Shown: one piece after another, positions 1 to 46,669 of the stretch | How positions within the stretch are numbered: position 1 is the first letter of the stretch | Layout of the letters: each line of letters opens with the position of its first letter | Source of the DNA: a virus | Taxonomy: Duplodnaviria > Heunggongvirae > Uroviricota > Caudoviricetes | Length of the DNA: 52,177 bases | Direction: 5' to 3' (one strand) | IMG/VR virus record: IMGVR_UViG_2563366958_000018 | Position numbers and translations under genes: made by a program | Notes under the pieces: model-generated | Told to the model about the DNA's origin: nothing | The model's database searches: none | What the model saw: the letters and a program-made list of their open reading frames with translations, nothing else

Positions 1-3000
1 ATGCCTGTCGACTTTCTAACCTCTGACCAAAAACAGAATTACGGTTGTTATGCTGCAGAACCTAATGACGTGCAACTGGCGCGCTATTTTCATCTTGATG
101 AACGGGATCTGGCCTTCATTAACCAACGACGGGGCAAACATAATAGGCTGGGCATTGCGCTTCAGCTCACCACAGCCCGTTTTCTGGGAACATTTCTGAC
201 GGATTTAACTCAGGTTCTGCCTGGTGTTCAACATTTTGTCGCGGTACAGCTTAATATCCACCGTCCAGAAGTTCTCTCCCGCTATGCTGAACGGGACACT
301 ACCCTTAGAGAACATACTGCATTAATTAAGGAATATTACGGCTATCATGAATTTGGTGATTTTCCATGGTCTTTCCGCCTGAAGCGTCTGCTATATACCC
401 GGGCGTGGCTCAGTAATGAGCGACCGGGTCTGATGTTTGATTTTGCCACTGCATGGTTGCTTCAAAATAAGGTATTACTGCCCGGAGCAACCACACTAGT
501 ACGTCTCATCAGTGAAATTCGTGAAAGGGCAAATCAGCGGCTGTGGAAAAAGCTGGCCGCACTGCCGAACAAATGGCAGGCAGCTCAAGTGATGGAGCTT
601 CTGGTCATTCCGGAAGGTCAGCGTGTATCAGCACTGGAACAGTTGAAAAAAGGCCCTGTTACAGTCAGTGGACCTGCGTTTAATGAGGCGCTGGAACGAT
701 ATATCCGATTACGAAGTCTTGAGTTTTCCCGACTGAACTTTTCCGGTCTGCCTGCCATTCAACTGCGTAATCTGGCTCGTTATGCTGGCATGGCGTCGGT
801 AAAATATATCGCTCGAATGCCACAGCAGAGAAAGCTTGCTGCACTTACTGCATTCGTTAAAGCACAGGAAATAACGGCATTAGACGATGCCGTTGATGTG
901 CTTGATATGCTAATTCTGGACATTATCCGCGAAGCAAAGAAAACCGGGCAAAAAAAAAGACTCAGGACACTGAAAGATCTTGATCAGGCCGCATTGTTAC
1001 TGGCGCGGGCATGTGCATTGTTGCTGGATGATAATACAGATGTCCCAGATCTCAGGCAGGTTATCTTCAAGTGCGTACCCAAAAACAGACTGGCAGAATC
1101 TGTAAGCAAGGTTAATGAACTTGCTCGTCCACAGAACAATAATTTCCATGACGAAATGGTTGAGCAGTACGGTCGGGTTAAACGTTTTCTTCCGGCGGTG
1201 TTGCGGGACCTGCATTTCCGTGCGGCACCGGCAGGTGAACATGTACTGGCTGCGATTCATTATCTGGCAGAACTGAATGGTTCGAAAAAGCGCATCCTTG
1301 ATGATGCGCCTGAACATATTATCACCGGTCCCTGGAAACGCCTCGTATACGATGCGGAGGGACGGATACAGCGTGCAGGTTATTCACTATGTTTGCTGGA
1401 ACGCCTTCAGGATGCACTGCGCCGCCGGGACATCTGGCTTGAAAACAGTGATCGCTGGGGAGATCCTCGCGAGAAGTTGTTGCAAGGTGAAGAGTGGCAG
1501 ACTCAGCGTATTCCTGTCTGTCGGGCACTGGGACATCCTGTCGATGGACGTAAAGGTGTGCAACAACTGGCTATTCAGCTGGATGAGACCTGGAAAGCCG
1601 TGGCATCACGATTTGAAAAGAATGCGGAAGTTCATATCTGTAATGAAGGTAAATATCCATCCCTGACTATCAGTTGTCTGGAGAAACAGGAAGAGCCACC
1701 ATCATTGCTTCGTCTAAATAATCGGATCAAACAGCTACTCCCACCGGTAGATTTAACGGAACTGTTACTTGAGATAGATGCCCAGACAGGATTTACACAT
1801 GAGTTTGCGCATGTCAGTGAATCTGGTGCTCGAGCGCAAGATTTGCACATCAGTTTATGTGCGGTATTGATGGCTGAAGCCTGTAATATCGGACTGGAGC
1901 CGCTGATAAAGCACAATATACCAGCACTGACCCGCCATCGGCTCAGTTGGGTGAAACAGAATTACCTTCGTGCAGAAACGCTGGTCAGCGCCAATGCCCG
2001 CCTGGTTGATTTTCAGTCCACACTGGAGCTTGCTGGTCGTTGGGGAGGTGGAGAAGTGGCATCAGCTGACGGCATGCGCTTTGTCACACCAGTGAAGACC
2101 ATCAACTCAGGATCTAACAGAAAATATTTTGGTTCTGGACGAGGCATCACCTGGTATAACTTCGTATCTGATCAGTACTCTGGGTTCCATGGCATTGTGG
2201 TACCCGGTACATTACGGGATTCGATTTTTGTACTGGAAGGACTTCTTGAGCAGCAGACAGGGCTGAATCCAGTTGAAATCATGACAGACACTGCGGGTAG
2301 CAGCGATATTATTTTCGGTCTGTTCTGGCTACTGGGGTATCAGTTTTCCCCCCGGCTTGCCGATGCAGGTGAGGCGGTGTTCTGGCGGGTGAATAAATCG
2401 GCAAACTACGGAGTACTGGATAAGTTGGCCCGAGGATATGCAGATCTGTCAAAAGCGGAGAGTCAGTGGGATGAGATGATGCGAACCGCTGGTTCGCTGA
2501 AGTTGGGTACAATTCATGCGTCAGAACTCATTCGCTCTTTACTGAAAAGCTCGCGCCCATCAGGACTGGCACAGGCAATTATGGAAGTAGGGCGTGTAAA
2601 CAAAACGCTATATCTCCTCAATTATATTGATGATGAAGATTATCGTCGGCGGATCCTGACGCAGCTTAATCGAGGAGAAGGCCGCCACGCTGTGGCTCGT
2701 GCGATTTGTTACGGACAACGCGGAGAGATCAGAAAGCGTTATCGTGAAGGGCAGGAAGATCAACTGGGGGCGCTGGGCCTGGTTACTAATGCAGTGGTTC
2801 TGTGGAACACGCTCTATATGGAGGAAGCGTTGAGCTGGATGCGCCGTAATGGCGAAGAAATTATAGATGAAGATATCGCTCGGCTATCTCCCCTGATGCA
2901 CGGGCATATCAATATGTTGGGCCATTATACATTCACGTTGCCAGAGGATATTTTAAAAGGGGAACTGAGAGCTCTAAATTTAAATATAAACAACGAATTA

Positions 3001-3009
3001 TCTCCTTAA
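1..3009 (+). CDS. tnpA: Tn3-family transposase TnpA (Tn1000/gamma-delta-like), 1002 aa
   Basis: Full-length ORF starting MPVDFLT; conserved Tn3-family TnpA blocks (RPGLMFD, GGGEVASADGMRFV, LSPLMHGHINMLGHY); stop codon lies inside the terminal IR as in Tn3-family elements. Confidence 0.9.
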   Translation: MPVDFLTSDQKQNYGCYAAEPNDVQLARYFHLDERDLAFINQRRGKHNRLGIALQLTTARFLGTFLTDLTQVLPGVQHFVAVQLNIHRPEVLSRYAERDTTLREHTALIKEYYGYHEFGDFPWSFRLKRLLYTRAWLSNERPGLMFDFATAWLLQNKVLLPGATTLVRLISEIRERANQRLWKKLAALPNKWQAAQVMELLVIPEGQRVSALEQLKKGPVTVSGPAFNEALERYIRLRSLEFSRLNFSGLPAIQLRNLARYAGMASVKYIARMPQQRKLAALTAFVKAQEITALDDAVDVLDMLILDIIREAKKTGQKKRLRTLKDLDQAALLLARACALLLDDNTDVPDLRQVIFKCVPKNRLAESVSKVNELARPQNNNFHDEMVEQYGRVKRFLPAVLRDLHFRAAPAGEHVLAAIHYLAELNGSKKRILDDAPEHIITGPWKRLVYDAEGRIQRAGYSLCLLERLQDALRRRDIWLENSDRWGDPREKLLQGEEWQTQRIPVCRALGHPVDGRKGVQQLAIQLDETWKAVASRFEKNAEVHICNEGKYPSLTISCLEKQEEPPSLLRLNNRIKQLLPPVDLTELLLEIDAQTGFTHEFAHVSESGARAQDLHISLCAVLMAEACNIGLEPLIKHNIPALTRHRLSWVKQNYLRAETLVSANARLVDFQSTLELAGRWGGGEVASADGMRFVTPVKTINSGSNRKYFGSGRGITWYNFVSDQYSGFHGIVVPGTLRDSIFVLEGLLEQQTGLNPVEIMTDTAGSSDIIFGLFWLLGYQFSPRLADAGEAVFWRVNKSANYGVLDKLARGYADLSKAESQWDEMMRTAGSLKLGTIHASELIRSLLKSSRPSGLAQAIMEVGRVNKTLYLLNYIDDEDYRRRILTQLNRGEGRHAVARAICYGQRGEIRKRYREGQEDQLGALGLVTNAVVLWNTLYMEEALSWMRRNGEEIIDEDIARLSPLMHGHINMLGHYTFTLPEDILKGELRALNLNINNELSP

Positions 3010-3042
3010 CGTACGTTTTCGTTCCATTGGCCCTCAAACCCC
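3005..3042. repeat. 38-bp Tn3-family terminal inverted repeat (Tn1000-like)
   Basis: CTTAACGTACGTTTTCGTTCCATTGGCCCTCAAACCCC is the reverse complement of a GGGGTTTGAGGGCCAATGGAACGAAAACGTACGTTAAG-type IR; overlaps the tnpA stop. Confidence 0.85.
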
Positions 3043-4508: not shown

Positions 4509-5177
4509 TTACGCGGCAGTAGTCAGAGCCTCAAGCTGGTTGATAATCCCCTGAATAACGTCGTCTGCCTTTTTGCGTGGCGCAACGTATGAGCATTCAA
4601 TGAGGCTTAAGCCCTTATCCTGAGCTTTGCTCAGAGCTGGCTTGTGGGGAATGTACTTATCGACAACAAAGTATGGCGTATTAGCTAGGTACTCTTGGGC
4701 TTCAATGTAGTCGGCTTCGTTTTCAGCCGCGCCTGAGAACACCATGCAAATTTTCTTGATTGGCACACCCTTTTTAACGATGCCGTGAGCTGTGTTAACG
4801 GTGGTTTCTAGGTCATCGGTAGAGAATCTGGTTGGCAAAATAACCATATCCAGAAATTCAGAGAGCTTCGGTACTGATTCAGATGCGTAGGCACCGCCAT
4901 CGACGATAACCAGGTCGTATACTTCTGATTCGATGATTTTCTGGACTTGTGATGGCGTGCCGCACGGCTGCGCCGCGATTGCAGGTTCGATATTGTTGGC
5001 CATTCTGCGTTGTACCCAACGCGTTACCGTTCCGTTAAGCACATCCATATCGATCAGGCATACATTCCAGCCGGCCTTTGCATAAGCAACTGCTAAAGCA
5101 CGGGCAATTGTTGATTTGGTTACGCCGCCTTTTCCGTTGAAAATACCTACAGAGATAGTCATTTGTCGAGACTCCAT
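4509..5177 (-). CDS. ParA/ParF-type partition ATPase (small ParA)
   Basis: Deviant Walker A (GIFNGKGGVTKST) near N-terminus, 222 aa; alternative start at 5162 (MTISV...) has the better RBS. Confidence 0.85.
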   Translation of the reverse strand: MESRQMTISVGIFNGKGGVTKSTIARALAVAYAKAGWNVCLIDMDVLNGTVTRWVQRRMANNIEPAIAAQPCGTPSQVQKIIESEVYDLVIVDGGAYASESVPKLSEFLDMVILPTRFSTDDLETTVNTAHGIVKKGVPIKKICMVFSGAAENEADYIEAQEYLANTPYFVVDKYIPHKPALSKAQDKGLSLIECSYVAPRKKADDVIQGIINQLEALTTAA

Positions 5178-18578: not shown

Positions 18579-19951
18579 TGCTTCACCTCAATTACGACAT
18601 AACGCACCTACGCGGCGCGGAATATAACCCGCGTTTTATCGGTGAGGATGATCTTGCGAGGCTGGCGGAAAGCGTCAGGGAGCTGGGGCTTGTGAAGCCA
18701 TTGATAGTGCGCGGCGATTTGCTGGTGGCGGGACACCAAAGGACGAAGGCGCTACGTAAGTTGGGAATAACGCGTGCTGCGGTGTATGTGTTGCCCTGTG
18801 AAACGACGGTATACGACGAAGTACGGTTTAACCAACTGCATAACGGAACGGATTTTGATAGCGGAGATGAGCGTTGCAGGGTGTCCGGTCTGGAAGATAA
18901 GCATGGTTTTGTTCAGGTATCGGCAAGCCAGATCTCAGGCAATATGCGCGCGAAAATGGCATATGTTCGAAAGAACATAGCGGAACTGGTTATCAAGTAT
19001 GGTCCGTGGGGTGGTTGTGTTGCTACTCAGTCTGGTGAGGTTATTCACTGTGCTCAGTATGCATTAGCAGCGAAAATGACGCGCACACCGCTAACGGTGT
19101 TTGTGATCCCTGATGTTGAGAAGGAAAAATACCAAAGTTATCTGAATAAAACTTATGGTGTATTTGAGTATTCTCATCTGGAGAAAACAACATACATCCA
19201 GACGTATGCGCAGCTTATGCGGTTGCGTAATGGTGGCAGCCTGAAATCAAATCTGTATGAGTCGTTGATCCTCCCGATCGTTGCCAAGACGCCAAGAGGA
19301 ATTGATTTTGGTTCGGGGCAGGGAGACTACGCGCGAATGCTCAGGGCAAAGGGATATAACCTGCATGATCTTGAGCTTTTTCGCCGTAAGGGCGCTGGAA
19401 ACACTCTGGATAGGGCTGCAACAAACCGAATGATTGATACGCTGGTGGACGACTTAAAAACGCGAGGGCGTTACGACTACGTGATTTGCGATAGCGTTTT
19501 GAACTCGGTCGATAGTGTCGAGGCTGAATGGTCCGTTCTGACGGTTCTGAAAGGCCTGTGTAAAGCTGGTGGGTCAATATTCTTTTCTGGTCGTAGCCGT
19601 GGAGAGCTGGAAACAGTCCTGAAGCAAACACAAGCGGCGAGTTCCAAAAGCCGGCTTTATTTTATTGATCATAACGGTTTTACCGCGTTGTACCGGAAGG
19701 GGCACTGGTTTTACCAGAAGTTTCACTCTGATGATGAAGTGAAGCAGTTGTGTCGTGTACATGGTTTCAGGATTAAGCGGTCAATATTCAACTGTAATAG
19801 CTGGTATTTGCACGTCATTAACGATGATTCCCTTAGTTGGGCGAGTCTGGAGAAAGCTGTTCGTTTTGAGTTTGAGTTGCCGTTGCCTGGTGGTTCAACA
19901 ATCGGACGATCTGATGATGTGCTGGCGGCTTTCCGGCCGTTGATTAAGTAG
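18578..19951 (+). CDS. ParB/Srx-like N-terminal domain fused to a class I SAM-dependent methyltransferase domain
   Basis: N-terminal LVAGHQRTKA ParB motif; C-terminal motif I GIDFGSGQGDYA and acidic post-I motif (YVICDSVLN); no DPPY/NPPY motif seen. Confidence 0.6.
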   Translation: MLHLNYDITHLRGAEYNPRFIGEDDLARLAESVRELGLVKPLIVRGDLLVAGHQRTKALRKLGITRAAVYVLPCETTVYDEVRFNQLHNGTDFDSGDERCRVSGLEDKHGFVQVSASQISGNMRAKMAYVRKNIAELVIKYGPWGGCVATQSGEVIHCAQYALAAKMTRTPLTVFVIPDVEKEKYQSYLNKTYGVFEYSHLEKTTYIQTYAQLMRLRNGGSLKSNLYESLILPIVAKTPRGIDFGSGQGDYARMLRAKGYNLHDLELFRRKGAGNTLDRAATNRMIDTLVDDLKTRGRYDYVICDSVLNSVDSVEAEWSVLTVLKGLCKAGGSIFFSGRSRGELETVLKQTQAASSKSRLYFIDHNGFTALYRKGHWFYQKFHSDDEVKQLCRVHGFRIKRSIFNCNSWYLHVINDDSLSWASLEKAVRFEFELPLPGGSTIGRSDDVLAAFRPLIK

Positions 19952-29802: not shown

Positions 29803-30093
29803 ATGGCTAATAAGAAAAGTAGTAAAGAAGATATAGAAAAGAAGGAAGATGTTGCTCAAACATTTGTATATATAGGGCCAACAATCCCTCAACTCTCAAT
29901 TTTGAAGCATAAACTATTTAAGAATGGCTTATCTCCAGAGTGTGAAAAATTAATATCACATATTCCTGGTGCAAAGTGTTTGTTTGTGGCAACCAGTGAT
30001 TTTTCAGATGCAGAAAAAAGACTTTCTGATAAAACCAGTGTCGAGTATGTAATGTACTCTAGAGTTTCTTCTTCTATCATGGAGATTAAATAA
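29803..30093 (+). CDS. Hypothetical protein (96 aa)
   Basis: Position only. Confidence 0.35.
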   Translation: MANKKSSKEDIEKKEDVAQTFVYIGPTIPQLSILKHKLFKNGLSPECEKLISHIPGAKCLFVATSDFSDAEKRLSDKTSVEYVMYSRVSSSIMEIK

Positions 30094-31556
30094 TGGGAAA
30101 TCGCCACGGTATTTATATATCTGAGCTGGCTACATCTATAACTCCTCCAGTACAAGTTAGTGCTGGGTTGATTGTCGCATTTGGTACAACTCCTGTTAAT
30201 CAGTTAGAAGATCCAGCCTCAGCGGTAAATAAACCTATCATTGCTTATACATACGCAGAGGCCGTATCTAAAATAGGATATAGCACAAACTTCGAGAAAT
30301 ATACTTTAAGCGAAGTAATTAAAGTCGCATTTGGAATATATGGTGTTGCGCCAGTTGTATTTATCAATGTGCTTGATCCAGCAAAGCATAAGAAAGACGT
30401 AACTGATGAGGTAGTAAAACTTTCTGGCGGGAAAGGTACGCTCTCTAACGATGGTGTCTTATATAAATCTGTTGTTGTGAAAAAAGCAGATGGTGATTCT
30501 CCAGGGTTAACGGTTGATACAGATTATGTACTGGCGCTGGATGATAATGGCTATACGGTCATTACCGCTATTAGCGGAGGAAAAATTACTGAAAAAGACG
30601 CCACTCTTAAGGTTAGTTATACGCATCTTGATCCCGGGGCTGTAACTAAAAACGATATTATTGGTGGTGTGGATTCCAACACTAAAGCGAATACGGGGCT
30701 TGAGTTACTGTCGGATGTTTATCCCCGCTTCAAACTAGTTCCAGGACAAGTGATTGCGCCTGGATTTAGTTCTGATAGTGAAGTTGGCCAGCTAATGGCG
30801 GCTAAAGCTGCGCTGATTAGTGAATTGTTCAAAGCAGAAGCTATCACCGATGCGCCGACTGATAAATCTACTATCAGTGATTATTCTGCTGTTCCTGAAT
30901 GGAAGCAGAACAATAATCATATGGCAGCTAACCAGACAGTGTGCTGGCCGATGGTGAAACTTGGTGACAATATTTACCATCACTCAACCCATTTAGCGGC
31001 AGCAACATGCTTGCTGGATAGTCAGTATGGTGATATTCCATCACGTTCTCCGTCAAATATAAAACTACAGATGGACGGTGCTGTACGTAAAGATGGCAGT
31101 GAGGTATGGCTTAACATTAGCCAGGCAAACTACTTAAATGGACAGGGGATTGTAACAAGCCTTAATTTTGATGGTTGGAAATCATGGGGAAACCGTAATG
31201 CTATTTATCCAACATCTACAGACCCCAAAGACGCATTTCGTGTTTGCCGACGTATGTTTAACTGGGTGGGTAATACGTTAATTCTTTCGCATTGGTCAAA
31301 AATAGACAATCCTGCAAACCGTCGATTAATTGAATCGATTGTTACTAGTGCGAATATTTGGCTTAACGGCCTCACTGGTAATCAGGATATTGCAGGTGGT
31401 GTTGTTACCTTTGATCAGTCTGAAAACACGATTACGTCATTGATGGACGGGATTGTTAAATTCCATGTAAAAATGACACCATTCTCACCTGCCAGAGATA
31501 TAGAGTTCGTCATGGAATATAATCCTGATTATCTGCTGAACTTGTTTTCTGAATAA
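30093..31556 (+). CDS. Contractile tail sheath protein
   Basis: 487 aa; followed by tube, chaperone and tape-measure genes. Confidence 0.8.
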   Translation: MGNRHGIYISELATSITPPVQVSAGLIVAFGTTPVNQLEDPASAVNKPIIAYTYAEAVSKIGYSTNFEKYTLSEVIKVAFGIYGVAPVVFINVLDPAKHKKDVTDEVVKLSGGKGTLSNDGVLYKSVVVKKADGDSPGLTVDTDYVLALDDNGYTVITAISGGKITEKDATLKVSYTHLDPGAVTKNDIIGGVDSNTKANTGLELLSDVYPRFKLVPGQVIAPGFSSDSEVGQLMAAKAALISELFKAEAITDAPTDKSTISDYSAVPEWKQNNNHMAANQTVCWPMVKLGDNIYHHSTHLAAATCLLDSQYGDIPSRSPSNIKLQMDGAVRKDGSEVWLNISQANYLNGQGIVTSLNFDGWKSWGNRNAIYPTSTDPKDAFRVCRRMFNWVGNTLILSHWSKIDNPANRRLIESIVTSANIWLNGLTGNQDIAGGVVTFDQSENTITSLMDGIVKFHVKMTPFSPARDIEFVMEYNPDYLLNLFSE

Positions 31557-31572: not shown

Positions 31573-32094
31573 TTGAGCAATCAAATTCCTGAGAGACTTA
31601 TTAACTTTACAGTATACGGTGAAGGAAACCGTATTATCGGTGTTGCTGACGCAAAGCTGCCATCAATTGAGATGATGACAGAAACTGTTAGTGGTGCAGG
31701 TATCGCTGGAGAGCTTGAGAGCGGAACGCTGGGGCATTTCAAACCAATGACTGTCTCTCTTAAATGGCGAACTCTGACCTCTGCTGGTACAAAATTATTT
31801 CTATCCTCATCGCATCAGGTAGATTTTCGCGGTAGCCAGCAGGTTTATGATGCAGGAACAGGAAAATATAAAACGGTTCCTATTCGGGCTTCAATGAAGC
31901 TAAACCCTAAAAAACTGGATTTAGGTTCGCTACAGGTGGCAAAGGCTACTGATTCAGAGAATGAATTTGAAGTTCTCTATATCAAATTATTTATTGATGG
32001 AAAAGAAGTCCTGGAAATTGATAAGTTGAACTTTATTTGTATCTTTGATGGTGAAGATATATTAAAAAGCGTTCGTGATGATTTAGGTTTATAA
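31573..32094 (+). CDS. Tail tube protein
   Basis: 173 aa directly after sheath; TTG start with AGGAGG RBS. Confidence 0.75.
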   Translation: MSNQIPERLINFTVYGEGNRIIGVADAKLPSIEMMTETVSGAGIAGELESGTLGHFKPMTVSLKWRTLTSAGTKLFLSSSHQVDFRGSQQVYDAGTGKYKTVPIRASMKLNPKKLDLGSLQVAKATDSENEFEVLYIKLFIDGKEVLEIDKLNFICIFDGEDILKSVRDDLGL

Positions 32095-32103
32095 GGTGAC
32101 AAA

Positions 32104-32385
32104 ATGGAAACCGTTAAATTAAGTAAAGAATATAGTTTTGAAGACTTTGAGCCGGTGACTGAACTCAACCTTGATTTAGACAACCTAAAAGGCAGTGATA
32201 TTTTAGAGGTATCGGACTTACTGCAATCTCAAGGGCATGTTTCAGTTCAAACATCACTTGATAATAAAGTCCATGCAGCCTTGGCTGCTCGCTGTATTGG
32301 TCGTCCAATAGAGTATCTGAATGGATTACCAGCGAAAGACTTTGTTAAAGTTTGTCAAAAGGTACAGAATTTTTTGCTCTCGTAG
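32104..32385 (+). CDS. Tail assembly chaperone (G/E-like)
   Basis: Small acidic protein between tube and tape measure. Confidence 0.55.
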   Translation: METVKLSKEYSFEDFEPVTELNLDLDNLKGSDILEVSDLLQSQGHVSVQTSLDNKVHAALAARCIGRPIEYLNGLPAKDFVKVCQKVQNFLLS

Positions 32386-32534
32386 GTTTTGATGAGCAAA
32401 AACCTATTGATAAGCAAATAATGAGGGCCGCGAGTTCTCTATCTCAATCATCTCAATCAACACCTATATCCTACTGGCTTTCGCTTCGGTTGAGGCGAAT
32501 CGTCGCATGGATTGACGTGTTTAATGAGGATTAA
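32352..32534 (+). CDS. Putative -1 frameshift extension of the tail assembly chaperone (GT/E+E'-like)
   Basis: Overlapping -1 frame ORF; slippery heptamer T_TTT_TTG at 32370-32376 just before the 0-frame stop. Confidence 0.45.
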   Translation: MSKGTEFFALVGFDEQKPIDKQIMRAASSLSQSSQSTPISYWLSLRLRRIVAWIDVFNED

Positions 32535-32539
32535 TACTA

Positions 32540-35332
32540 ATGGCCAGCAATAAGAACTTTAAGCTGGCTTTTGAAATTGGCGGCAAAGTTGCCGCCTCTC
32601 TCCCCAAAAGTTTTACTACAGCTAATCAGGCTGTTGCTAAATTAAATGCAGAGCTTGCTGGATTAACGAAAGAACATGGGGAAATTCAAAAGCTACAATC
32701 TGTAAAAGTAAAGGTTGGACAGACTGCCCTCGAATATCATAAAGCTGCCGCTCGCGTTGAAGAGTTACAGAAGCAAATAAAAAACACGGCCAATCCAACC
32801 AGAGCGATGCTTCGTGACTTTGAGAAGGCAAAAACACATTCATCAAATTTACGAGCATCACTACGTTCTCAGCGTGAAGAACTGGCCGCTTTAAAGTCTG
32901 CCTATCAGGGAGCTGATACATCTGCCAGAGCTTTGGCCTCAAGAGAGAAAGAGCTTAAAGCCAGCATTGATCGTAATCGTGAGGCTCAGGCCCGTAGCGT
33001 TGAGCAGGTTAACCGCTACAGAACGGCTTTGGCTTTAGCCAGAGCAAATGTTCAGCAAGTGAAAAAACAGCAGGAGGAACTTAACCGGGCATTAGAAAAA
33101 CAACGTATTGATAAAATTAACAGCTATAAAAATGCGTTGGCTGAAGCACGGAAAAATGTTCTTGCAGTAAAACGTGCTCAGGAGGAGTTAAACCGCGCGT
33201 TGGAAAGGCAGCGTGAATTGAAGCGAGAGCATCTTGGTGAGGCAAAGAGTCAACTTGTAAGGTCAGGATTACAAACTGGTGCTGTAGCGGCTGGTGCATT
33301 TGCTGCTGCTAACAATGCAGCAAATTTCAATCGTGAAAACAAAATGATTGGTCTTACGGCAGATATGAAGCCGGAAGAAGTTCAGGCGATGGGGCAGGCG
33401 ATGCTTGTTACCGGAACGGCTACCAACCAGTTTGCATCTGATATTCAGGCCGCTCAGGGTTTTCTCGTCGCTGCTGGGCAGGATTATAAAGAGGCTCAGG
33501 CGAATCTACTAACTATTGGGCGAACAGCTACAGCTACTGGCTCTGATATCCTCGATGTCTCGAAAGCATCATTTACATTAAGTGACTCATTGAAGATTGA
33601 TCCATCTCAAATGAAGTCTGCAATGGGGATTCTGGTTCAGGCAGGGAAAGAGGGGAACTTTGAATTTAAAGATATGGCCAAAAATCTTCCTGTGCTTGGT
33701 GCTCAGTTCCAGGCATTAAAAATGGGAGGTAAAGAAGCAGCCGCGACGATGGGTGCAGCTTTGCAGATAGCTCGCAAGGGGGCTGCAACTTCGGATGAGG
33801 CTGCTAATAATATGAACAACTTTTTGGCAAAAATACTTTCCCCTGAAACACTAAAAAAAGCAAAGAAAAATTTCGGTGTAGATTTATATAAAATTGTTAC
33901 AACAGCGCAGAAAAAAGGGAAGAATCCATTCGAAGCTGCAATGCATTCTGTCATGAAAATGACTAAGAACGGAGATCAGAAGTTACTTGGTGAACTATTT
34001 GGCGATATGCAGGTTCAGAACTTTGTTCGTCCGATGATTCAAAACTGGAAGGAATACCAGAGAATCAAAGCAACATCTCTTGGAGCTGGAAGTGCTGTTA
34101 TTGACCGCGATTTTGCCAACATAACGAAAGATAATGCGGAGCGATTGAAACAATTACGTATTCAGGCTAGCAATGCATCATTAAGTTTTGGTCAGGCCTT
34201 GCAACCTGCTTTGAATGCCGCGCTTAGTGTTTTGGTTCCGCTGATTACAAAAATTAGTGAATTTGTAGCTAACAACCCCAATTTTGTGTCTCAGATAGTG
34301 ATGGCGGCAGGTGCGTTTCTAACCATGAAAAGTGTGGTTATAGCGTGTAGGGTAGCTATGCTGGCTTTATCTGTAGCGACAAAGCTAACACCCTTCGGGT
34401 GGATTCAGATGGCTATATCTGCGCTGGTTGCCGCAGGAATATTGCTCTATCAGAATTGGGATAAGATCAGAGATTATGCTGTCAGAGTTTGGCCTTCTGT
34501 TAAGGAATATACAGTTAAATCATTTGAGGCTATAAAAAACTTTATCTTAAACTTTGACCTCAATGGATGGATTATATCTATGTTTGGTAAAGCATGGGAT
34601 TATCTTTCCAACATAAACTGGAGTTCGGCAGGAGTAAGAATTTACAGTACATTAATTAGTGCTTTTAAATGGATGTCTCCGCTTCCGTTCTTAATTAAAG
34701 CATTTAAAATTACAACAAATTACCTTTCTGGCATTAACTGGAGCGAAACAGGAAAGAAAATCATAGATACACTGGTATCTGTTTTTATGCGTTTTTCACC
34801 AGTTGGACTCTTTATAAGAGCATTCCAATCTGTAACGACTTATTTATCTGGAATAAACTGGAGTGAGTCAGGCGCAAAAATAATTGAGACGTTAATCACT
34901 GGGATAAAATCAAAAGCAAATGCTTTAATTAATGAAGTGAAAGGCGTTTTTTCTTCTGTACGTGAGTATTTACCGTTCTCTGACGCGAAAAAAGGTCCAT
35001 TCTCACAGCTAACAAAGTCAGGTGGTGCAATAATGACTACTCTGGCATCAGGTGTTAGCAGGAATAACAGCTTACAGAATGCAATAGCAAGCAAGTTCGG
35101 GCAATCAAATTTATCACCTCACGGGATATCTGCCGCTGGGACTTCTGGACCTCGCCAGAACGTTAACGCTGTGACTGGTGGAATAACCTATTCACCTGTA
35201 ATCAATCTTCCGGCTGGTTCACCAAAGGAAACTGAGGCGGCAGCTAAAAGAGCATTAGATGCGGGATATTCTGATTTTGAGAAGAAATTGAGTGCTCATA
35301 TGTTCCAACAACGGAGATTAAGTTTTGGATGA
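32540..35332 (+). CDS. Tail tape measure protein
   Basis: 930 aa, coiled-coil N-terminal half, hydrophobic central segment. Confidence 0.85.
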   Translation: MASNKNFKLAFEIGGKVAASLPKSFTTANQAVAKLNAELAGLTKEHGEIQKLQSVKVKVGQTALEYHKAAARVEELQKQIKNTANPTRAMLRDFEKAKTHSSNLRASLRSQREELAALKSAYQGADTSARALASREKELKASIDRNREAQARSVEQVNRYRTALALARANVQQVKKQQEELNRALEKQRIDKINSYKNALAEARKNVLAVKRAQEELNRALERQRELKREHLGEAKSQLVRSGLQTGAVAAGAFAAANNAANFNRENKMIGLTADMKPEEVQAMGQAMLVTGTATNQFASDIQAAQGFLVAAGQDYKEAQANLLTIGRTATATGSDILDVSKASFTLSDSLKIDPSQMKSAMGILVQAGKEGNFEFKDMAKNLPVLGAQFQALKMGGKEAAATMGAALQIARKGAATSDEAANNMNNFLAKILSPETLKKAKKNFGVDLYKIVTTAQKKGKNPFEAAMHSVMKMTKNGDQKLLGELFGDMQVQNFVRPMIQNWKEYQRIKATSLGAGSAVIDRDFANITKDNAERLKQLRIQASNASLSFGQALQPALNAALSVLVPLITKISEFVANNPNFVSQIVMAAGAFLTMKSVVIACRVAMLALSVATKLTPFGWIQMAISALVAAGILLYQNWDKIRDYAVRVWPSVKEYTVKSFEAIKNFILNFDLNGWIISMFGKAWDYLSNINWSSAGVRIYSTLISAFKWMSPLPFLIKAFKITTNYLSGINWSETGKKIIDTLVSVFMRFSPVGLFIRAFQSVTTYLSGINWSESGAKIIETLITGIKSKANALINEVKGVFSSVREYLPFSDAKKGPFSQLTKSGGAIMTTLASGVSRNNSLQNAIASKFGQSNLSPHGISAAGTSGPRQNVNAVTGGITYSPVINLPAGSPKETEAAAKRALDAGYSDFEKKLSAHMFQQRRLSFG

Positions 35333-35543
35333 TTATAGAACGGTTCAAGGGGACTCATGGGATAGTATCGCTTTAAAGTTGTATGGTAATGAGTACCTGT
35401 CTTATCTTCTTATTGATGCTAATACTGAGCACCGCTTTACGGTGCTTTTTTCTGCGGGAATTATTCTTAAAGTTCCTGATGCTCCGGTTATGCCAATATC
35501 AGTAAACAATTTTCCTCCGTGGAGACGCAATAGTGTTACGTAA
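35325..35543 (+). CDS. Tail protein X-like (LysM-like, P2 gpX family)
   Basis: 72 aa with QGDSWDSIALKLYG motif; TTG start. Confidence 0.55.
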   Translation: MDDYRTVQGDSWDSIALKLYGNEYLSYLLIDANTEHRFTVLFSAGIILKVPDAPVMPISVNNFPPWRRNSVT

Positions 35544-36534
35544 AACGCTTTTTGATGTTATATATCAGAATGTAAATATTACCGCTCATATGTCACCTGA
35601 TGTTTTGTCAATGTCTTATACAGATAATGAAGATGGTCAGGTCGATGATATTTCTATTATATTAAAAAATGATGATGGGAAATGGTCTGGAGACTGGACA
35701 CCTAAAAAGGGTGATTTTATTGATTTGAGCTTTAAGCCTATAAATCAAATCGTCCTTGAGTGCGGGAAATTCCAGGTAGATGGCATAACTTGCTCTGGAC
35801 CACCTTCTGTGGTTGAGGTAACTGCTGTTTCTGTTCCTGTTTCATCAGGCATTAGACGTGATTTAAAAAGTAATGCATGGGAAAAAACAACTCTTAAAGA
35901 TATAGCAACTTCTATAGCTAAATTAGCTAACCTTGAACTGTTGTTTCTTATTGATGGTGATAGTAATCCATATTATGCGCGTGAAGATCAAATGGAGGAA
36001 AGCGATTTAAAATTTCTCCATCGACTTTGCCAGGATGAAGGGTTGTCGTTAAAGGTCACTGATAGCCAATTAATAATATTTGCTCAAGAGATGTTTGAGC
36101 AAAAAGATCCTATCGCTACGCTTACGTTAGGTATTGATGAGATAATCAGATATAGCTTTAGCACACAATCTACAGATTTGTATAAAAGTTGCACGTGCAA
36201 ATATCGCGTACCTAAAAAAAGAAAGTCGCTTTCGTATACTTGGGTAGATCCATCCGTAGAAGAAGGGTCGAATCTTAAGATAAGAAAACTGGTAGCTAAT
36301 TTAGATGAAGCAAAACGTAAGGCAAAGGCTGCTTTGCGGCTTAAAAATAGATATCAAAATACCGGATCTTTAGTATTGGTTGGAGACACCAGATTGGTAG
36401 CTGGTGTAACTATAAATCTGGAGGGATTCGGTTCATTTTCTGGAAAATATCTTATATCGAAAGCTGTGCATTCAATTGGGACTAGTGGTTATACCACCTC
36501 GATTGATGTCCGAAGAGTAATTAATGGGTATTAA
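35533..36534 (+). CDS. Baseplate hub/late control gpD-like protein
   Basis: 333 aa, position after tape measure and X; GTG start. Confidence 0.55.
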   Translation: MLRKTLFDVIYQNVNITAHMSPDVLSMSYTDNEDGQVDDISIILKNDDGKWSGDWTPKKGDFIDLSFKPINQIVLECGKFQVDGITCSGPPSVVEVTAVSVPVSSGIRRDLKSNAWEKTTLKDIATSIAKLANLELLFLIDGDSNPYYAREDQMEESDLKFLHRLCQDEGLSLKVTDSQLIIFAQEMFEQKDPIATLTLGIDEIIRYSFSTQSTDLYKSCTCKYRVPKKRKSLSYTWVDPSVEEGSNLKIRKLVANLDEAKRKAKAALRLKNRYQNTGSLVLVGDTRLVAGVTINLEGFGSFSGKYLISKAVHSIGTSGYTTSIDVRRVINGY

Positions 36535-36536
36535 TT

Positions 36537-37157
36537 ATGAATGATTTAGAAACATTATTACGTCAGACTATAAGAGTTGGCGTTGTTTCTGATATTGATG
36601 ATGGTGATGTTACAGCAAGAGTTACTTTCGATGATCAGGATAACGTCACTTCGGCAAAGTTATCAGTTATTGTGAAAAATACAGATAAGAATGCTGATTA
36701 CTGGATGCCAGATATTGGTGAGCAAGTTTTGTGTATCTTTCATCCCGCGGGGCCGCAACAAGGTTTTATTCTTGGTAGTTTTTATGATGAAACACAGAAG
36801 CCGCCATCTAATACTGTTAATAAACGCGTCATTAGATTTAATAACGGAACTCGTATTGAGATAGACAGAGAATCTAATTTACTCCTTGTTGATGCTGTCG
36901 GAGATGTAACCATTAAGGCTACAGGAACCGTAACTATTGATGCTCCAGAAACCATCATTACCGGAAATGCTACAGTTGAAGGATTACTAACCTTCAAAGG
37001 TGGAATGAAAGGATCTTCTGCTGGAGGTGTTGCAGCTACAATTTCTGGGAATGTTAAGGTTGTTGGTGGTGATATAGATGTTGATGGGATTAAATCTAAA
37101 GGCCACCATCACACAGCTCAGGGGGAATACGCTCCGACAACGGAGGCTCAGGCATGA
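36537..37157 (+). CDS. Baseplate spike protein (gpV-like)
   Basis: 206 aa with Gly-rich C-terminal repeat region. Confidence 0.55.
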   Translation: MNDLETLLRQTIRVGVVSDIDDGDVTARVTFDDQDNVTSAKLSVIVKNTDKNADYWMPDIGEQVLCIFHPAGPQQGFILGSFYDETQKPPSNTVNKRVIRFNNGTRIEIDRESNLLLVDAVGDVTIKATGTVTIDAPETIITGNATVEGLLTFKGGMKGSSAGGVAATISGNVKVVGGDIDVDGIKSKGHHHTAQGEYAPTTEAQA

Positions 37158-39663: not shown

Positions 39664-42510
39664 GTGAGTAAATTATTATTTACGATGACTGACGCCGGGC
39701 GTAAGGCGCTGGTTAATGCCAACAAGACTGGAACAAATAAAGTTGAGATCGTTTCTGTTGGTTTAGGTAGTAGATATTATGCCACATCAACCACACAAAC
39801 AAAAATAACAGATGAAATAAAGCGACTTACCACAATAGGAGGCAAAGTCGTTTCTCCTGATACCATTCATGTAACTGCGAAGGATGATAGTAAAGATGAG
39901 TATGTTGTCCATACAATAGGTTTGTATACAAATAAAGGAACATTGTTTGCTGTATACTCGCAAGAACAAGTAATAATAAATAAAGCATCTTCTACAATTG
40001 CTTTAATATCAAGTGATATAGCAATTAAAAATCTTGATACTAAAAACATTACATTTGGTGATGTTGAGTTTATTAACCCTCCCGCAACCGAAACTGTTGT
40101 TGGAGTAGCAAGATTTGCTAATGAACAAGAAATTGATGCAGGTACAGATGATTCCCTGGCTGTTTCAGCAAAGCGGCTTAAGCAAGCTATTGTAAAACAT
40201 GAGCAATCACGTAATCATCCTGATGCAACTTTAACATCAAAAGGCATTGTTCAACTCAGTAATGCCACCAATAGCACGTCTGAAAAGCTCGCAGCGACGC
40301 CTAAGGCTGTTAAGGCTGCATATGACCTGGCTAACGCTAAATACACCGCACAGGACGCTACCACGGCGCGAAAAGGGATTGTTCAGCTCAGTAGTGCCAC
40401 TAACAGTACGTCTGAAACGCAGGCGGCAACGCCAAAAGCGGTCAAGGCAGCAAATGACAACGCAAATTCACGTCTGGCGAAAAATCAGAACGGTGCAGAT
40501 ATCCAGGATAAATCAGCTTTTCTGGACAATGTTGGCGTTACCAGCCTGACGTTTATGAAAAACAATGGCGAAATGCCGCTTGATGCTGATCTGAATACGT
40601 TTGGTCCTGTTAAGGCTTATTCAGGTATCTGGTCTAAAGCAACATCCACCAACGCAACACTGGAGAAAAATTTCCCGGAAGATAATGCTGTCGGTGTGCT
40701 TGAGGTTTTTGCTGCCGGCAATTTTGCAGGTACGCAACGCTTTACCACGAGAGACGGCAATGTATACATGCGTAAACTCGCCAATAAGTGGAATGGCACT
40801 GATGGTCCGTGGGGCGTATGGCGTCACACTCAATCTGCTACCCGCCCTTTGAGTACGACTATAGACCTGAATACGCTTGGAGCCGCCGAGCATCTTGGTT
40901 TATGGCGTAACAGTAGCTCAGCTATAGCTTCATATGAACGCAATTATCCAGAGGAAGGCGGCTTTGCTCAGGGGATGCTTGAGATCCTCGAAGGCGGAAA
41001 TTATGGAAGAACGCAACGTTATACCACTCGCCGTGGAAATATGTATGTCCGCTGTCTTGCGGCAAGCTGGGATGCATCAAATCCGCAGTGGGAACCGTGG
41101 TTAAGAGTCGGTCATCAGTCAGAGAGTCGTTATTACGACGGTGATTTGAATGATGTAACCTCACCAGGTATTTACAGCGTTACAGGTAAAGCGACCAACG
41201 GTCCAATACTGGACGGAAACGGCGTGACAGTCCTCGGTATTCTGGAGGTGTTGAGGCGCTTTGATGGTGTTAATGTATGGCAGCGTTATACAACTGCCGG
41301 AACAGGTACAACCCTTAAAGGCCGCACCTTTGAGCGCGTCTTTACCGGCAGCTCATGGAGCGAATGGCGGGAAGTCTACACCTCGTATTCACTTCCCCTG
41401 AATCTGGGTATCGGCGGTGCTGTGGCAAAGCTCACCAGCCTGGACTGGCAGACCTACGATTTTGTGCCGGGCAGTCTGATAACCGTTCGGCTTGATAACA
41501 TGACCAATATTCCCGACGGTATGGACTGGGGCGTCATTGATGGCAACCTGATAAACATCTCAGTCGGTCCGAGTGATGATTCTGGTTCGGGACGCTCAAT
41601 GCATGTATGGCGCAGCACTGTAAGTAAAGCCAACTACCGCTTTTTTATGGTTCGCATTTCAGGAAATCCGGGAAGCCGCACGATCACGACAAGACGTGTG
41701 CCAATTATCGACGAAGCTCAGACATGGATGGCGAAACAGACATTCAGCGGTGGTCTTTCAGGCGAACTATCCGGCAATGCTGCTACAGCAACAAAGCTGA
41801 AAACGGCAAGGACAATTAACGGCGTAAAATTTGACGGCTCGGCAAATATTGAAGCGTTTCCGCCAGGTGTTCCGCTGCCGTGGCCATCAGATACGCCACC
41901 TGCAGGTTATGCAATCATGCTGGGGCAGACGTTTGATAAGGCAGCATATCCGAAACTGGCTATTGCCTATCCTTCTGGTGTTATTCCAGATATGCGCGGC
42001 TGGACAATCAAGGGCAAACCCGCCAGTGGTCGGGCCGTATTGTCTCAGGAACAGGATGGCATTAAATCGCACACCCACAGTGCCAGCGCATCCAATACGG
42101 ATTTGGGTACGAAAACCACATCGTCGTTTGATTACGGTACTAAATCAACGAATAACACAGGTGCACATACCCATAATGTATCTGGTACTGCAAATAGTGC
42201 TGGCGCACATACTCATACCGTTCCATTAAGGAGACCAAACAGTGGCGGTATGAATTTCGACTGGCTGGATGGTTCATCAAGTGGCACGGTGGTGGGGAAT
42301 GGAACTGTGCCTTCTTCTGGCGCACATACCCACTCAGTATCAGGTACCGCTACAAGTGCTGGGGCACATGCACACACTGTTGGTATTGGCGCTCATACGC
42401 ACTCTGTTGCGATTGGTTCACATGGACACACCATCACCGTTAACGCTGCTGGTAACGCGGAAAACACCGTTAAAAACATCGCATTTAATTATATTGTGAG
42501 GCTTGCATAA
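39664..42510 (+). CDS. Tail fibre protein (P2 gpH-like N-terminal domain, His-box C-terminal repeats)
   Basis: [30 protein letters not shown]...[29 protein letters not shown] block closely resembles P2 gpH as recalled; C-terminal GAHTHxVSGTA repeats. Confidence 0.85.
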
Positions 42511-43599: not shown

Positions 43600-44472
<873 letters not shown>

Positions 44473-45688: not shown

Positions 45689-46669
45689 ATGGAAACAAAA
45701 AGCCCGCAGATAAATCTGCGGGCTTCTTGCGACATCCACGGAAAACCAACAACAACAATCCATGGGCGCCTCGACAACTCCCATTATACGTTGGTTTTCC
45801 GTGGACGCAAGAGCGAACATATGGATAGACCAATGCCGTCTCTACGTTCAGCTTACGTTTGTAATTTGTCGCCGGAGTTCCAGCCTCCAAAGCACCATAC
45901 GCACAAGCTGCCGCTGGTGTTATCTGATGCTTTACAGCGCATTAATGGGCGTGATCTTACGTGTGAGGTTGCGTTCTACGTTAATCAACCGTCAGAGCGG
46001 AAGCGCCGGATAAACGAGCATCGTCGTCGGGCGATTAATGCTGTGATCGCTGCGATTTTGCACCATGTAAACATCATTTCTAAGCGGGTTCTGGCTAGTG
46101 CTGAGGCGTTGGCTGATTTTTGCGGCCTGTCTACCGTATCCGAAGCTGGGAACAAGTCTATAACGCGCTGTACAAGGGCGTTGTCGCAACTGAAAGCGTT
46201 AGGTTTTATTGATTATGAACGTCGCTGGGATCGGGTGAATAAACAGTATTGGCCAGCGAAAATAGAGATTCGTGATCAACTGCTGGAAACCGTTGGTATT
46301 ACTGAACAAGCATGGAGACGTGCGGTTAGCCAGAAACTTAATTACTTCAATGCGAAGAATAGCGAACGGCTTAAAAAAGCGATAACGGAGGCTGATTATA
46401 AGCGTATTGTTATTCAGGAGCAGATGGAGAATGTATGGCGTCAGAGGAAGACGGCCAGAGAGATAAAGGCAAAACAGAAAGCAGCGGAGAGAGCTGCGCG
46501 TCTTGTTCGGGAAAAGGGAGAGGCCGAACTTCGTCATCAAATCACCAGAGAGGTTAGTCAGGAATTTGCTGATGGCATGTATCCTGGTGCTGACCTTGCA
46601 TATTTACGATCCCTCGTTGAGCAGCGTTATAACAGGTTAAGAAAGACCTGGAAATCACTCCAACATTAA
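45689..46669 (+). CDS. repA: Plasmid replication initiator RepA (IncFII RepA1 / I-complex RepZ family)
   Basis: Conserved RRRAINAVIAAILHH and CGLSTVSEAGNKSITRCTRALSQLKALGFIDY blocks align with IncFII RepA1 as recalled; likely true start at ATG 45821 (282 aa), with 45689-45820 being leader. Confidence 0.85.
   Translation: METKSPQINLRASCDIHGKPTTTIHGRLDNSHYTLVFRGRKSEHMDRPMPSLRSAYVCNLSPEFQPPKHHTHKLPLVLSDALQRINGRDLTCEVAFYVNQPSERKRRINEHRRRAINAVIAAILHHVNIISKRVLASAEALADFCGLSTVSEAGNKSITRCTRALSQLKALGFIDYERRWDRVNKQYWPAKIEIRDQLLETVGITEQAWRRAVSQKLNYFNAKNSERLKKAITEADYKRIVIQEQMENVWRQRKTAREIKAKQKAAERAARLVREKGEAELRHQITREVSQEFADGMYPGADLAYLRSLVEQRYNRLRKTWKSLQH
45699..45810 (+). promoter_or_regulatory. repA leader with two strong hairpins (candidate antisense-RNA target / translational control region)
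   Basis: AGCCCGCAG-ATAAAT-CTGCGGGCT (45701-45723) and CCACGGAAAACCAAC...GTTGGTTTTCCGTGG (15-bp stem, 45736-45804). Confidence 0.35.

Follow-up and report, generated by a model that had tools for sequence, protein, structure and literature searches.

RESULTS

A tail chaperone gene overlapped by a -1 frame

The 52,177-nucleotide (nt) stretch of viral DNA analyzed here (the window) encodes a complete myovirus-type structural module together with plasmid genes (Table 1). The central genes of the tail module are ordered sheath, tube, chaperone, and tape measure, and the sheath gene (phrog_23) indicates that the tail is contractile. The tape-measure protein is presumed to be the client of the chaperones. 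Downstream, the gpX-like LysM gene begins at a TTG (35325) that lies in the tape-measure gene, 8 nt from its end, and the gpD-like gene begins at a GTG (35533) that overlaps the end of the gpX-like gene, both overlaps reflecting the tight translational coupling typical of tail operons. The tube protein, a member of the P2 FII family, falls in phrog_55, which is labeled "head closure," and the same label is carried by the RefSeq tube genes of Vibrio phage X29, Paenibacillus phage Lily, and Faecalibacterium phage Epona; this looks like a propagated misannotation.

TABLE 1 Features of the chaperone locus, its tail module, and the rest of the element, in window coordinates
Feature	Position	Strand	Details
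Tn3-family transposase	1–3009	+	1002 aa; PF01526, 3e-149
ParA-like ATPase	4509–5177	-	
Tail sheath gene	30093–31556	+	phrog_23, 3e-94
Tail tube gene (P2 FII family), upstream neighbor	31573–32094	+	PF04985, 3.5e-44
Short tail assembly chaperone ORF (gpE-like)	32104–32385	+	93 aa, 10.4 kDa; ATG start, TAG stop 32383–32385
Predicted fusion, join(32104..32376, 32376..32534)	32104–32534	+	91 + 52 = 143 aa, 16.1 kDa
AAGGT, weak Shine-Dalgarno-like, candidate 5' stimulator	32359–32363	+	11 nt upstream of heptamer
Slippery heptamer T_TTT_TTG	32370–32376	+	P-site TTT 32371–32373; A-site TTG 32374–32376
-1 frame extension (E'-like)	32376–32534	+	52 codons plus TAA 32532–32534; base 32376 re-read
9-bp hairpin (GUAGGUUUU / AAAACCUAU), candidate 3' stimulator	32382–32407	+	Starts 5 nt past heptamer; dG -9.1 kcal/mol
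Tape measure gene, downstream neighbor	32540–35332	+	PF10145, 1e-20; phrog_28, 9e-109
gpX-like LysM protein	35325–35543		PF05489
gpD-like hub	35533–36534		PF05954
gpV-like spike	36537–37157		PF04717, PF18715
Class A beta-lactamase	43600–44460	-	286 aa; PF13354, 2e-41
IncFII-type RepA	45689–46669		PF02387, 1.3e-43

The heptamer lies in the X_XXY_YYZ register, with the 0-frame codons AAT (32368 to 32370), TTT, and TTG followed by CTC, TCG, and the TAG stop, leaving 6 nt between the heptamer and the stop. The -1 frame contains no stops from 32349 up to its terminal TAA, and the extension ends 5 nt short of the tape-measure ATG (32540). The initial annotation had placed here a chaperone open reading frame (ORF), an overlapping -1 frame ORF reaching 32534, and a T_TTT_TTG close to the chaperone stop, and all three were confirmed in position and reading frame. 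Its starting point for the region, 32352, is only the first TTG in a -1 frame that is itself open from slightly farther upstream, and the fusion product, put at about 145 amino acids (aa), was recomputed as 143 aa.

By itself, the sequence TTTTTTG is common in the window (7 copies on the plus strand and 13 on the minus strand), and only the combination of an in-frame heptamer with a long -1 extension is unique. Plus-strand ORFs of at least 80 aa were scanned for in-frame X_XXY_YYZ heptamers from which the -1 frame continued for at least 30 codons beyond the 0-frame stop. The 68 ORFs contain 63 in-frame heptamers, and the chaperone site is the sole one with a genuine long -1 extension; two further cases proved to be spurious ORFs nested in the tail-fiber gene (39664 to 42510).

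The element as a probable phage-plasmid

With its RepA and ParA-like genes alongside the structural module, the element looks like a phage-plasmid. Relatives occur in 71 of 5,426 complete E. coli genomes, always as plasmids of 46 to 50 kb and never in chromosomes, and include a plasmid of E. coli ATCC 25922 and the Yersinia phages vB_YpM_39/41/44. The Tn3-family transposase and the beta-lactamase are unexpected cargo for a phage. The region from 1 to 3042 is absent from the closest phage-plasmids, and the beta-lactamase gene lies ~7.7 kb from the transposase gene when the distance is taken across the window ends. The element may be a phage-plasmid that carries resistance.

Family and predicted fold of the chaperone domain

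The 93-aa ORF matches PF10109 (Phage_TAC_7) at positions 1 to 78 of the 79-position profile, with a score of 26.0 bits (E value of 9.5e-06) that lies marginally above the cut-off of 25 and drops to 24.3 bits when the fusion is scanned; the corresponding score of P2 is 47.8 bits. This profile, titled "Phage tail assembly chaperone proteins, E, or 41 or 14," represents the P2 gpE/Mu gp41 family. Homologues of the ORF carry precomputed PF10109 hits, and the ORF itself matches phrog_3140, "tail assembly chaperone," at 7e-43. Profile matching thus assigns the ORF to the P2 gpE/Mu gp41 family of chaperones through a PF10109 match that is marginal but consistent.

An AlphaFold (AF2) model of the 93-aa domain (pLDDT of 77) folds into a beta-hairpin and four helices. 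Its best matches are predicted viral tail-assembly or tape-measure chaperones (TM scores of 0.85 to 0.86), including a 147-aa protein with 46% identity (TM score of 0.86), a "tail assembly chaperone," and the "tape measure chaperone" of Burkholderia phage Mica. Searches of the PDB, by sequence and by Foldseek, returned no counterpart of the chaperone, and the fold assignment is therefore backed by predicted viral structures only. NCBIfam contained nothing that matched the fusion or the extension.

The heptamer is conserved across distant lineages

The site was compared across 15 lineages, P2 included, ranging in identity from 34 to 100% and in origin from enterobacterial phage-plasmids to elements of Vibrio, Acinetobacter, Paenibacillus, Faecalibacterium, and Blautia. 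Chaperone protein identity is 95 to 99% in the close phage and plasmid relatives, 68 to 77% in the other enterobacterial relatives (Klebsiella, Hafnia, Symbiopectobacterium, and metagenomes), and 34 to 46% in the distant phages (Vibrio phages X29 and R20L, Pararheinheimera phage KLER1-1, Paenibacillus phage Lily, Faecalibacterium phage Epona, Acinetobacter phage HFM1, and Blautia/Agathobacter prophages). Most of the useful loci were supplied by contigs encoding homologues, by IMG/VR, and by tblastn searches of phage records; a single-sequence scan of genome contigs recovered no relatives, and an alignment-based rescan of these contigs recovered two Firmicute loci only. When the fusion was used as the tblastn query, its two halves aligned as two pieces in adjacent frames in 5 of 5 close phage relatives.

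In every lineage (15 of 15), T_TTT_TTN occupies homologous codons, reading NNT TTT TTN. The codon preceding the P site is AAT, AGT, TCT, or GGT, such that the amino acid varies and T is constant at the synonymous third base. The P-site codon is TTT in all 15 lineages and TTC in none, and the A-site codon is TTG in 13 lineages, TTA in 1, and TTC in 1. Neighboring synonymous sites vary, with CAG or CAA upstream and CTC, CTA, or CTG downstream, and amid these variable neighbors three heptamer positions that are themselves synonymous sites remain fixed. Because the heptamer is conserved in relatives, its presence by chance is excluded. The -1 extension measures 52 to 60 aa in every lineage. In lineages with a known tape-measure start, it stops at that start or shortly beyond, with the exception of Acinetobacter phage HFM1.

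In HFM1 (L045, 1143 to 1511), the extension ends ~370 nt before the annotated tape-measure start and an extra small ORF (1251 to 1412) lies between the two; the junction is tight in all lineages other than this one. The Firmicute members keep the six T's and change the last base of the heptamer, which is TTTTTTA in the Blautia/Agathobacter prophages (L037, 1758 to 1764, and L038) and TTTTTTC in Faecalibacterium phage Epona (L044, 958 to 964), placing either Leu-UUA or Phe-UUC in the A site. This difference may track the tRNA pools of the hosts.

Two IMG/VR sequences, L035 (UViG_2880355930_000001) and L036 (UViG_2880350357_000007), at first seemed to be exceptions without a heptamer. Both have many indels, with frame hops throughout their contigs, and the hops within the chaperone gene include the T run, where ...SFFAGVGF... 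can be read in a single frame. These hops look like products of indel-rich assemblies rather than biology. In a third locus, L015, the sequence is unrelated from ~25 nt past the chaperone stop. All three are uninformative, L035 and L036 because of their indels and L015 because of its unrelated downstream sequence.

A run of six T's could also be subject to slippage by RNA polymerase, in which the addition of one U would bring ordinary translation into the -1 frame and join the two frames as ...NFFALVG.... The homopolymer for such an event is present and the product would likewise be 143 aa long, and the tests applied here do not directly separate transcriptional from ribosomal slippage. However, the run is exactly 6 T's in 15 of 15 lineages, never longer, and it always stands in the X_XXY_YYZ register required for two tRNAs to slip in tandem. 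Efficient transcriptional slippage in bacteria involves runs of ~9 A's or T's, with shorter or mixed runs needing a special context (PMC5009743, PMC1088944), and the P2 case is annotated (AF063097), and cited in PMC3091744, as translational. Slippage during transcription is thus very unlikely to be the source of the longer product. The two mechanisms predict different junction peptides: VQNFLALVGFDEQKPIDK (2060.094 Da, containing F-L-A) if the ribosome slips and VQNFFALVGFDEQKPIDK (2094.079 Da, containing F-F-A) if the polymerase does.

The -1 extension evolves as coding sequence

Among seven enterobacterial lineages, the -1 frame has dN/dS values of 0.05 to 0.29 (Nei-Gojobori) and no stops, and its pooled differences number 252, 145, and 483 at codon positions 1, 2, and 3, respectively. 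When read in the other two frames, the identical columns yield dN/dS values of at least 1.0 where these are computable, along with 4 to 13 stops. This substitution pattern indicates that the -1 extension is real coding sequence under purifying selection. Conservation is evident in the motif MRAAxSLS..TPISYWLSLRLxR..WI..FNE and in the residues directly after the slip point (A-x-V/I-G-F/L).

Selection that is codon periodic in the -1 frame only, conservation of the heptamer and of the extension length down to 34% identity and across phyla, and the uniqueness of this configuration among the 63 in-frame heptamers make it scarcely conceivable that the overlap and the heptamer are coincidental and that the 155 bp preceding the tape-measure gene are a noncoding spacer. 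What speaks for a spacer is that the stretch is unannotated in GenBank and RefSeq relatives and that TTTTTTG is present 20 times in the window.

The extension belongs to a protein family of its own, phrog_30074 ("unknown function"; 2e-37), and others have therefore called the -1 ORF as an independent small gene, as in Vibrio phage R20L, Pararheinheimera phage KLER1-1, and Paenibacillus phage Lily, where it is a separate coding sequence (CDS). Such a gene would dispense with the frameshift and begin at TTG 32352 or ATG 32421, and 6 of 7 enterobacterial lineages do have a TTG or GTG 24 nt ahead of the slip point. The candidate starts nevertheless have almost no Shine-Dalgarno pairing: the anti-Shine-Dalgarno duplex energies are -0.9 kcal/mol for the TTG and -0.7 kcal/mol for the ATG, compared with -3.7 to -10.9 kcal/mol for the real genes of the module. 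Moreover, the -1 frame start codon upstream of the heptamer is missing in the L016 lineage (which has CTG), in the Blautia homologue, and in P2, and the conserved residues after the slip point lie upstream of any internal Met. A separate gene would also leave the three frozen synonymous sites in the heptamer unexplained. From these sequence features, an independent translation start for the -1 ORF appears unlikely, and a separate gene expressed without any frameshift extremely so.

The extension could not be joined to P2 E' by homology searches. PF06528 (Phage_P2_GpE) had no match in the window extension even at an E value of ≤10 and matched 0 of 12 lineage representatives at ≤1. A profile-profile comparison of the extension with P2 E' (hhalign) gave a nonsignificant probability of 5.5%, in an alignment that pairs STPISYWLSLRLRRIVAWID with HWPPSELYPMSLTELITWRE at the same relative position. 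Judged by sequence, it may represent either an E' that has diverged greatly or a domain of another kind.

Candidate RNA stimulators

Upstream of the heptamer, the weak Shine-Dalgarno-like AAGGT is conserved: all 10 of the enterobacterial loci read A(A/G)GGT, and the equivalent register of P2 reads TAAGGTGGT. The same bases encode a conserved Lys/Arg-Val, and selection at the RNA level and at the protein level is therefore confounded and cannot be separated.

Downstream of the heptamer, neither 60 nor 100 nt fold better than shuffled sequences (z scores of -0.6 and -0.95, respectively), and the same holds for the relatives and P2. The 121-nt context that spans the site has z scores of -3.4 in the window and -3.05 in L014, a relative with 95% identity, and these low values are due to the 9-bp hairpin listed in Table 1. 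In the relatives with 68 to 76% identity, the hairpin is absent and the z scores for this context range from -0.2 to +1.2, and the consensus fold across relatives reaches only -5.7 kcal/mol with little covariation. The hairpin, confined to the window and its 95% relative, is therefore lineage specific at best, and no conserved downstream stimulatory RNA emerged from the search, in agreement with the lack of structure reported for P2. The heptamer is also predicted to pair with GAGCAAAAA or with CAAAAGG upstream, but these pairings were set aside because a ribosome positioned on the site would have melted them and because they are either not conserved or built from G-U pairs.

A more elaborate reading is that the 52-aa extension is a distinct tube-recruiting domain, nonhomologous to P2 E', and that the E. 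coli lineage has acquired in this hairpin, 5 nt after the heptamer, its own means of tuning frameshift efficiency. We regard this combination as improbable; were it true, the ratio of short to long chaperone would be tuned differently from that of relatives, and the clade would offer a natural series for the modulation of a stimulator-less U_UUU_UUG site.

Annotation of the locus in relatives

The long form of the chaperone is unannotated in all of the close relatives examined, namely, five GenBank phage records, the RefSeq plasmid of E. coli AR_0067, and contigs from Klebsiella, Hafnia, Symbiopectobacterium, and metagenomes. In the GenBank and RefSeq relatives, the 93-aa product is the only one annotated, and the ~155 bp that follow are left blank. 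The megablast matches in the 71 of 5,426 complete E. coli genomes likewise show only a single "phage tail assembly protein" flanked by the tube and tape-measure genes.

The -1 extension is often called as a small gene standing alone: at 32352 to 32534 in the window, 967 to 1137 in L041, 1018 to 1143 in L042, and 1009 to 1131 in L043, under the labels phrog_30074 "unknown function," "hypothetical protein," and "tail assembly chaperone." These stand-alone CDSs are probably truncated pieces of a frameshift product, and PHROG 30074 could be labeled as the frameshift extension of a tail assembly chaperone.

DISCUSSION

The 93-aa ORF and the overlapping -1 ORF very probably constitute one recoded gene of the P2 gpE/gpE+E' type, expressed by means of a -1 ribosomal frameshift, through which long-tailed phages are well known to obtain a short and a long tail assembly chaperone from a single gene. 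The initial annotation had proposed that the two frames yield a tail chaperone pair in this way, and the proposal is supported by the anatomy of the locus and its position in the tail module, the family of the N domain, the precedent of P2, the conservation of the heptamer, the purifying selection on the -1 frame, and the want of a credible start of its own for the extension. The ribosomal nature of the slippage, and the role of both products in tail assembly, we infer by analogy with the known systems.

According to the proposed mechanism, most ribosomes would translate the 0 frame to its end and release the 93-aa tail assembly chaperone. A minority would slip on U_UUU_UUG with tRNA-Phe on UUU in the P site and tRNA-Leu on UUG in the A site, both tRNAs shifting back by one base to re-pair with UUU and UUU. 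Decoding would then resume at GCU in the -1 frame and terminate at the stop at 32532 to 32534, producing a 143-aa form that has the first 91 residues in common with the short form and continues into a different domain of 52 residues (...VQNFL-ALVGFDEQ...). By analogy with lambda gpG/gpGT, the shared N domain would coat the tape-measure protein encoded by the next gene, and the rare long form would use its extension to recruit the tube protein, after which tube and then sheath would polymerize around the tape measure. The frameshift would set a fixed ratio of short to long product. From comparable systems, its efficiency is probably between a few and about 10 percent.

The heptamer had been called a less common slippery sequence, which holds for E. 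coli motifs in general but not for the PF10109 chaperone family, in which it is the normal site. Heptamers measured as efficient in E. coli include V_VV.A_AA.R and H_HH.U_UU.Y, and U_UU.U_UU.G does not appear among the efficient or selected motifs (PMC4066793). Heptamers that end in G are themselves not unusual in bacteria, since A_AA.A_AA.G and A_AA.A_AA.A make up 72% of those found in insertion sequence elements (PMC4066793). A motif of low efficiency suits a system that needs only a minority of long product.

The site is a true recoding signal of an already known kind that had gone unannotated in this element. It extends the P2-type T_TTT_TTN site to a group of plasmid-borne phages and to Firmicute phages, and conservation of the signal thus far exceeds that of the protein sequence it serves. 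The main value of the finding is for annotation, and the understanding of frameshifting or tail assembly is unchanged.

Comparison with known frameshift systems

The tau/gamma frameshift of E. coli dnaX requires a strong upstream Shine-Dalgarno sequence and a stable downstream hairpin and proceeds at an efficiency of ~50%. Like the site in the window, it operates in an enterobacterial host and entails a tandem -1 slip on a homopolymer-type heptamer whose last base is G. The window differs in having only the weak AAGGT and a nonconserved 9-bp hairpin, and its shifted product is the longer of the two, whereas that of dnaX is the shorter. A conserved hairpin or pseudoknot 5 to 9 nt after the heptamer, as in dnaX and IS3-type elements, was not found in the diverged relatives or in P2.

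Lambda gpG and gpGT were reportedly characterized by Levin et al. in 1993 and by Xu, Hendrix, and Duda in 2004, 2013, and 2014. As in G/GT-type loci, the window has a locus between the tube and tape-measure genes, a -1 overlap without a start of its own, a conserved in-frame heptamer, and a coding extension. The proposed roles are also alike, with a shared domain that would bind the tape measure and an extension that would recruit the tube protein. The two differ in that lambda has G_GGA_AAG and a noncontractile tail and the window has T_TTT_TTG and a contractile tail, and no sequence or Pfam relationship was detectable between lambda gpG/gpGT and the window proteins. PMC5009743 gives a gpG:gpGT ratio of ~30:1 for lambda and reports that P2-type sites are 2- to 3-fold more efficient.

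The closest relative in which the frameshift has been annotated is Vibrio phage X29 (NC_024369.2), whose joined CDS is described as a "lambda gpGT analog." It resembles the window in its N domain (46% identity), in a TTTTTTG located 6 nt before the stop, in an extension of 57 aa, and in the motif TPIPYW...L. X29 differs in its host and in having a 41.6-kb linear phage genome, and its joined CDS is itself a prediction.

The primary description of the P2 E/E+E' frameshift is, as cited in PMC3091744 and PMC5009743, that of Christie et al. in 2002, and in P2 the signal has been demonstrated by experiment. As described in PMC3091744, the gpE (91 aa) and gpE+E' (142 aa) of P2 arise through a -1 frameshift at TTTTTTG, a site reported there to be without RNA structure. 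The P2 record (AF063097) holds a joined CDS at 19430 to 19857 and a "site of -1 translational frameshift" at 19685; its heptamer, at 19678 to 19684, is in a register identical to that of the window, and the 142-aa product could be reconstructed from it. The two loci nevertheless differ in several respects. A BLASTP comparison of the fusion with E+E' finds nothing, and P2 E' matches PF06528 at 1.2e-21, whereas the window extension does not. The 0-frame stop follows the heptamer by 6 nt in the window and by 18 nt in P2. The tail operon of P2 runs FI-FII-E-E'-T-U-D, whereas in the window the tape-measure gene is followed by the gpX-like LysM gene and then by gpD (PF05954), with no gpU between. 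Finally, the window is a plasmid-borne phage, and P2-like phages are integrating prophages.

Against these differences stand a contractile tail and the order of sheath, tube, chaperone, and tape measure, an N domain in PF10109, an in-frame T_TTT_TTG with AAGGT 11 nt upstream, and a K-V-x-x-F-L context (K-V-V-G-F-L in P2 and K-V-Q-N-F-L in the window). The product sizes are also close (91/142 aa in P2 and 93/143 aa in the window), and in both cases there is no conserved downstream RNA structure and the extension ends at the tape-measure start. By analogy, then, the locus in the window is the P2 E/E+E' system in mechanism and architecture, with a membership in its protein families that is partial.
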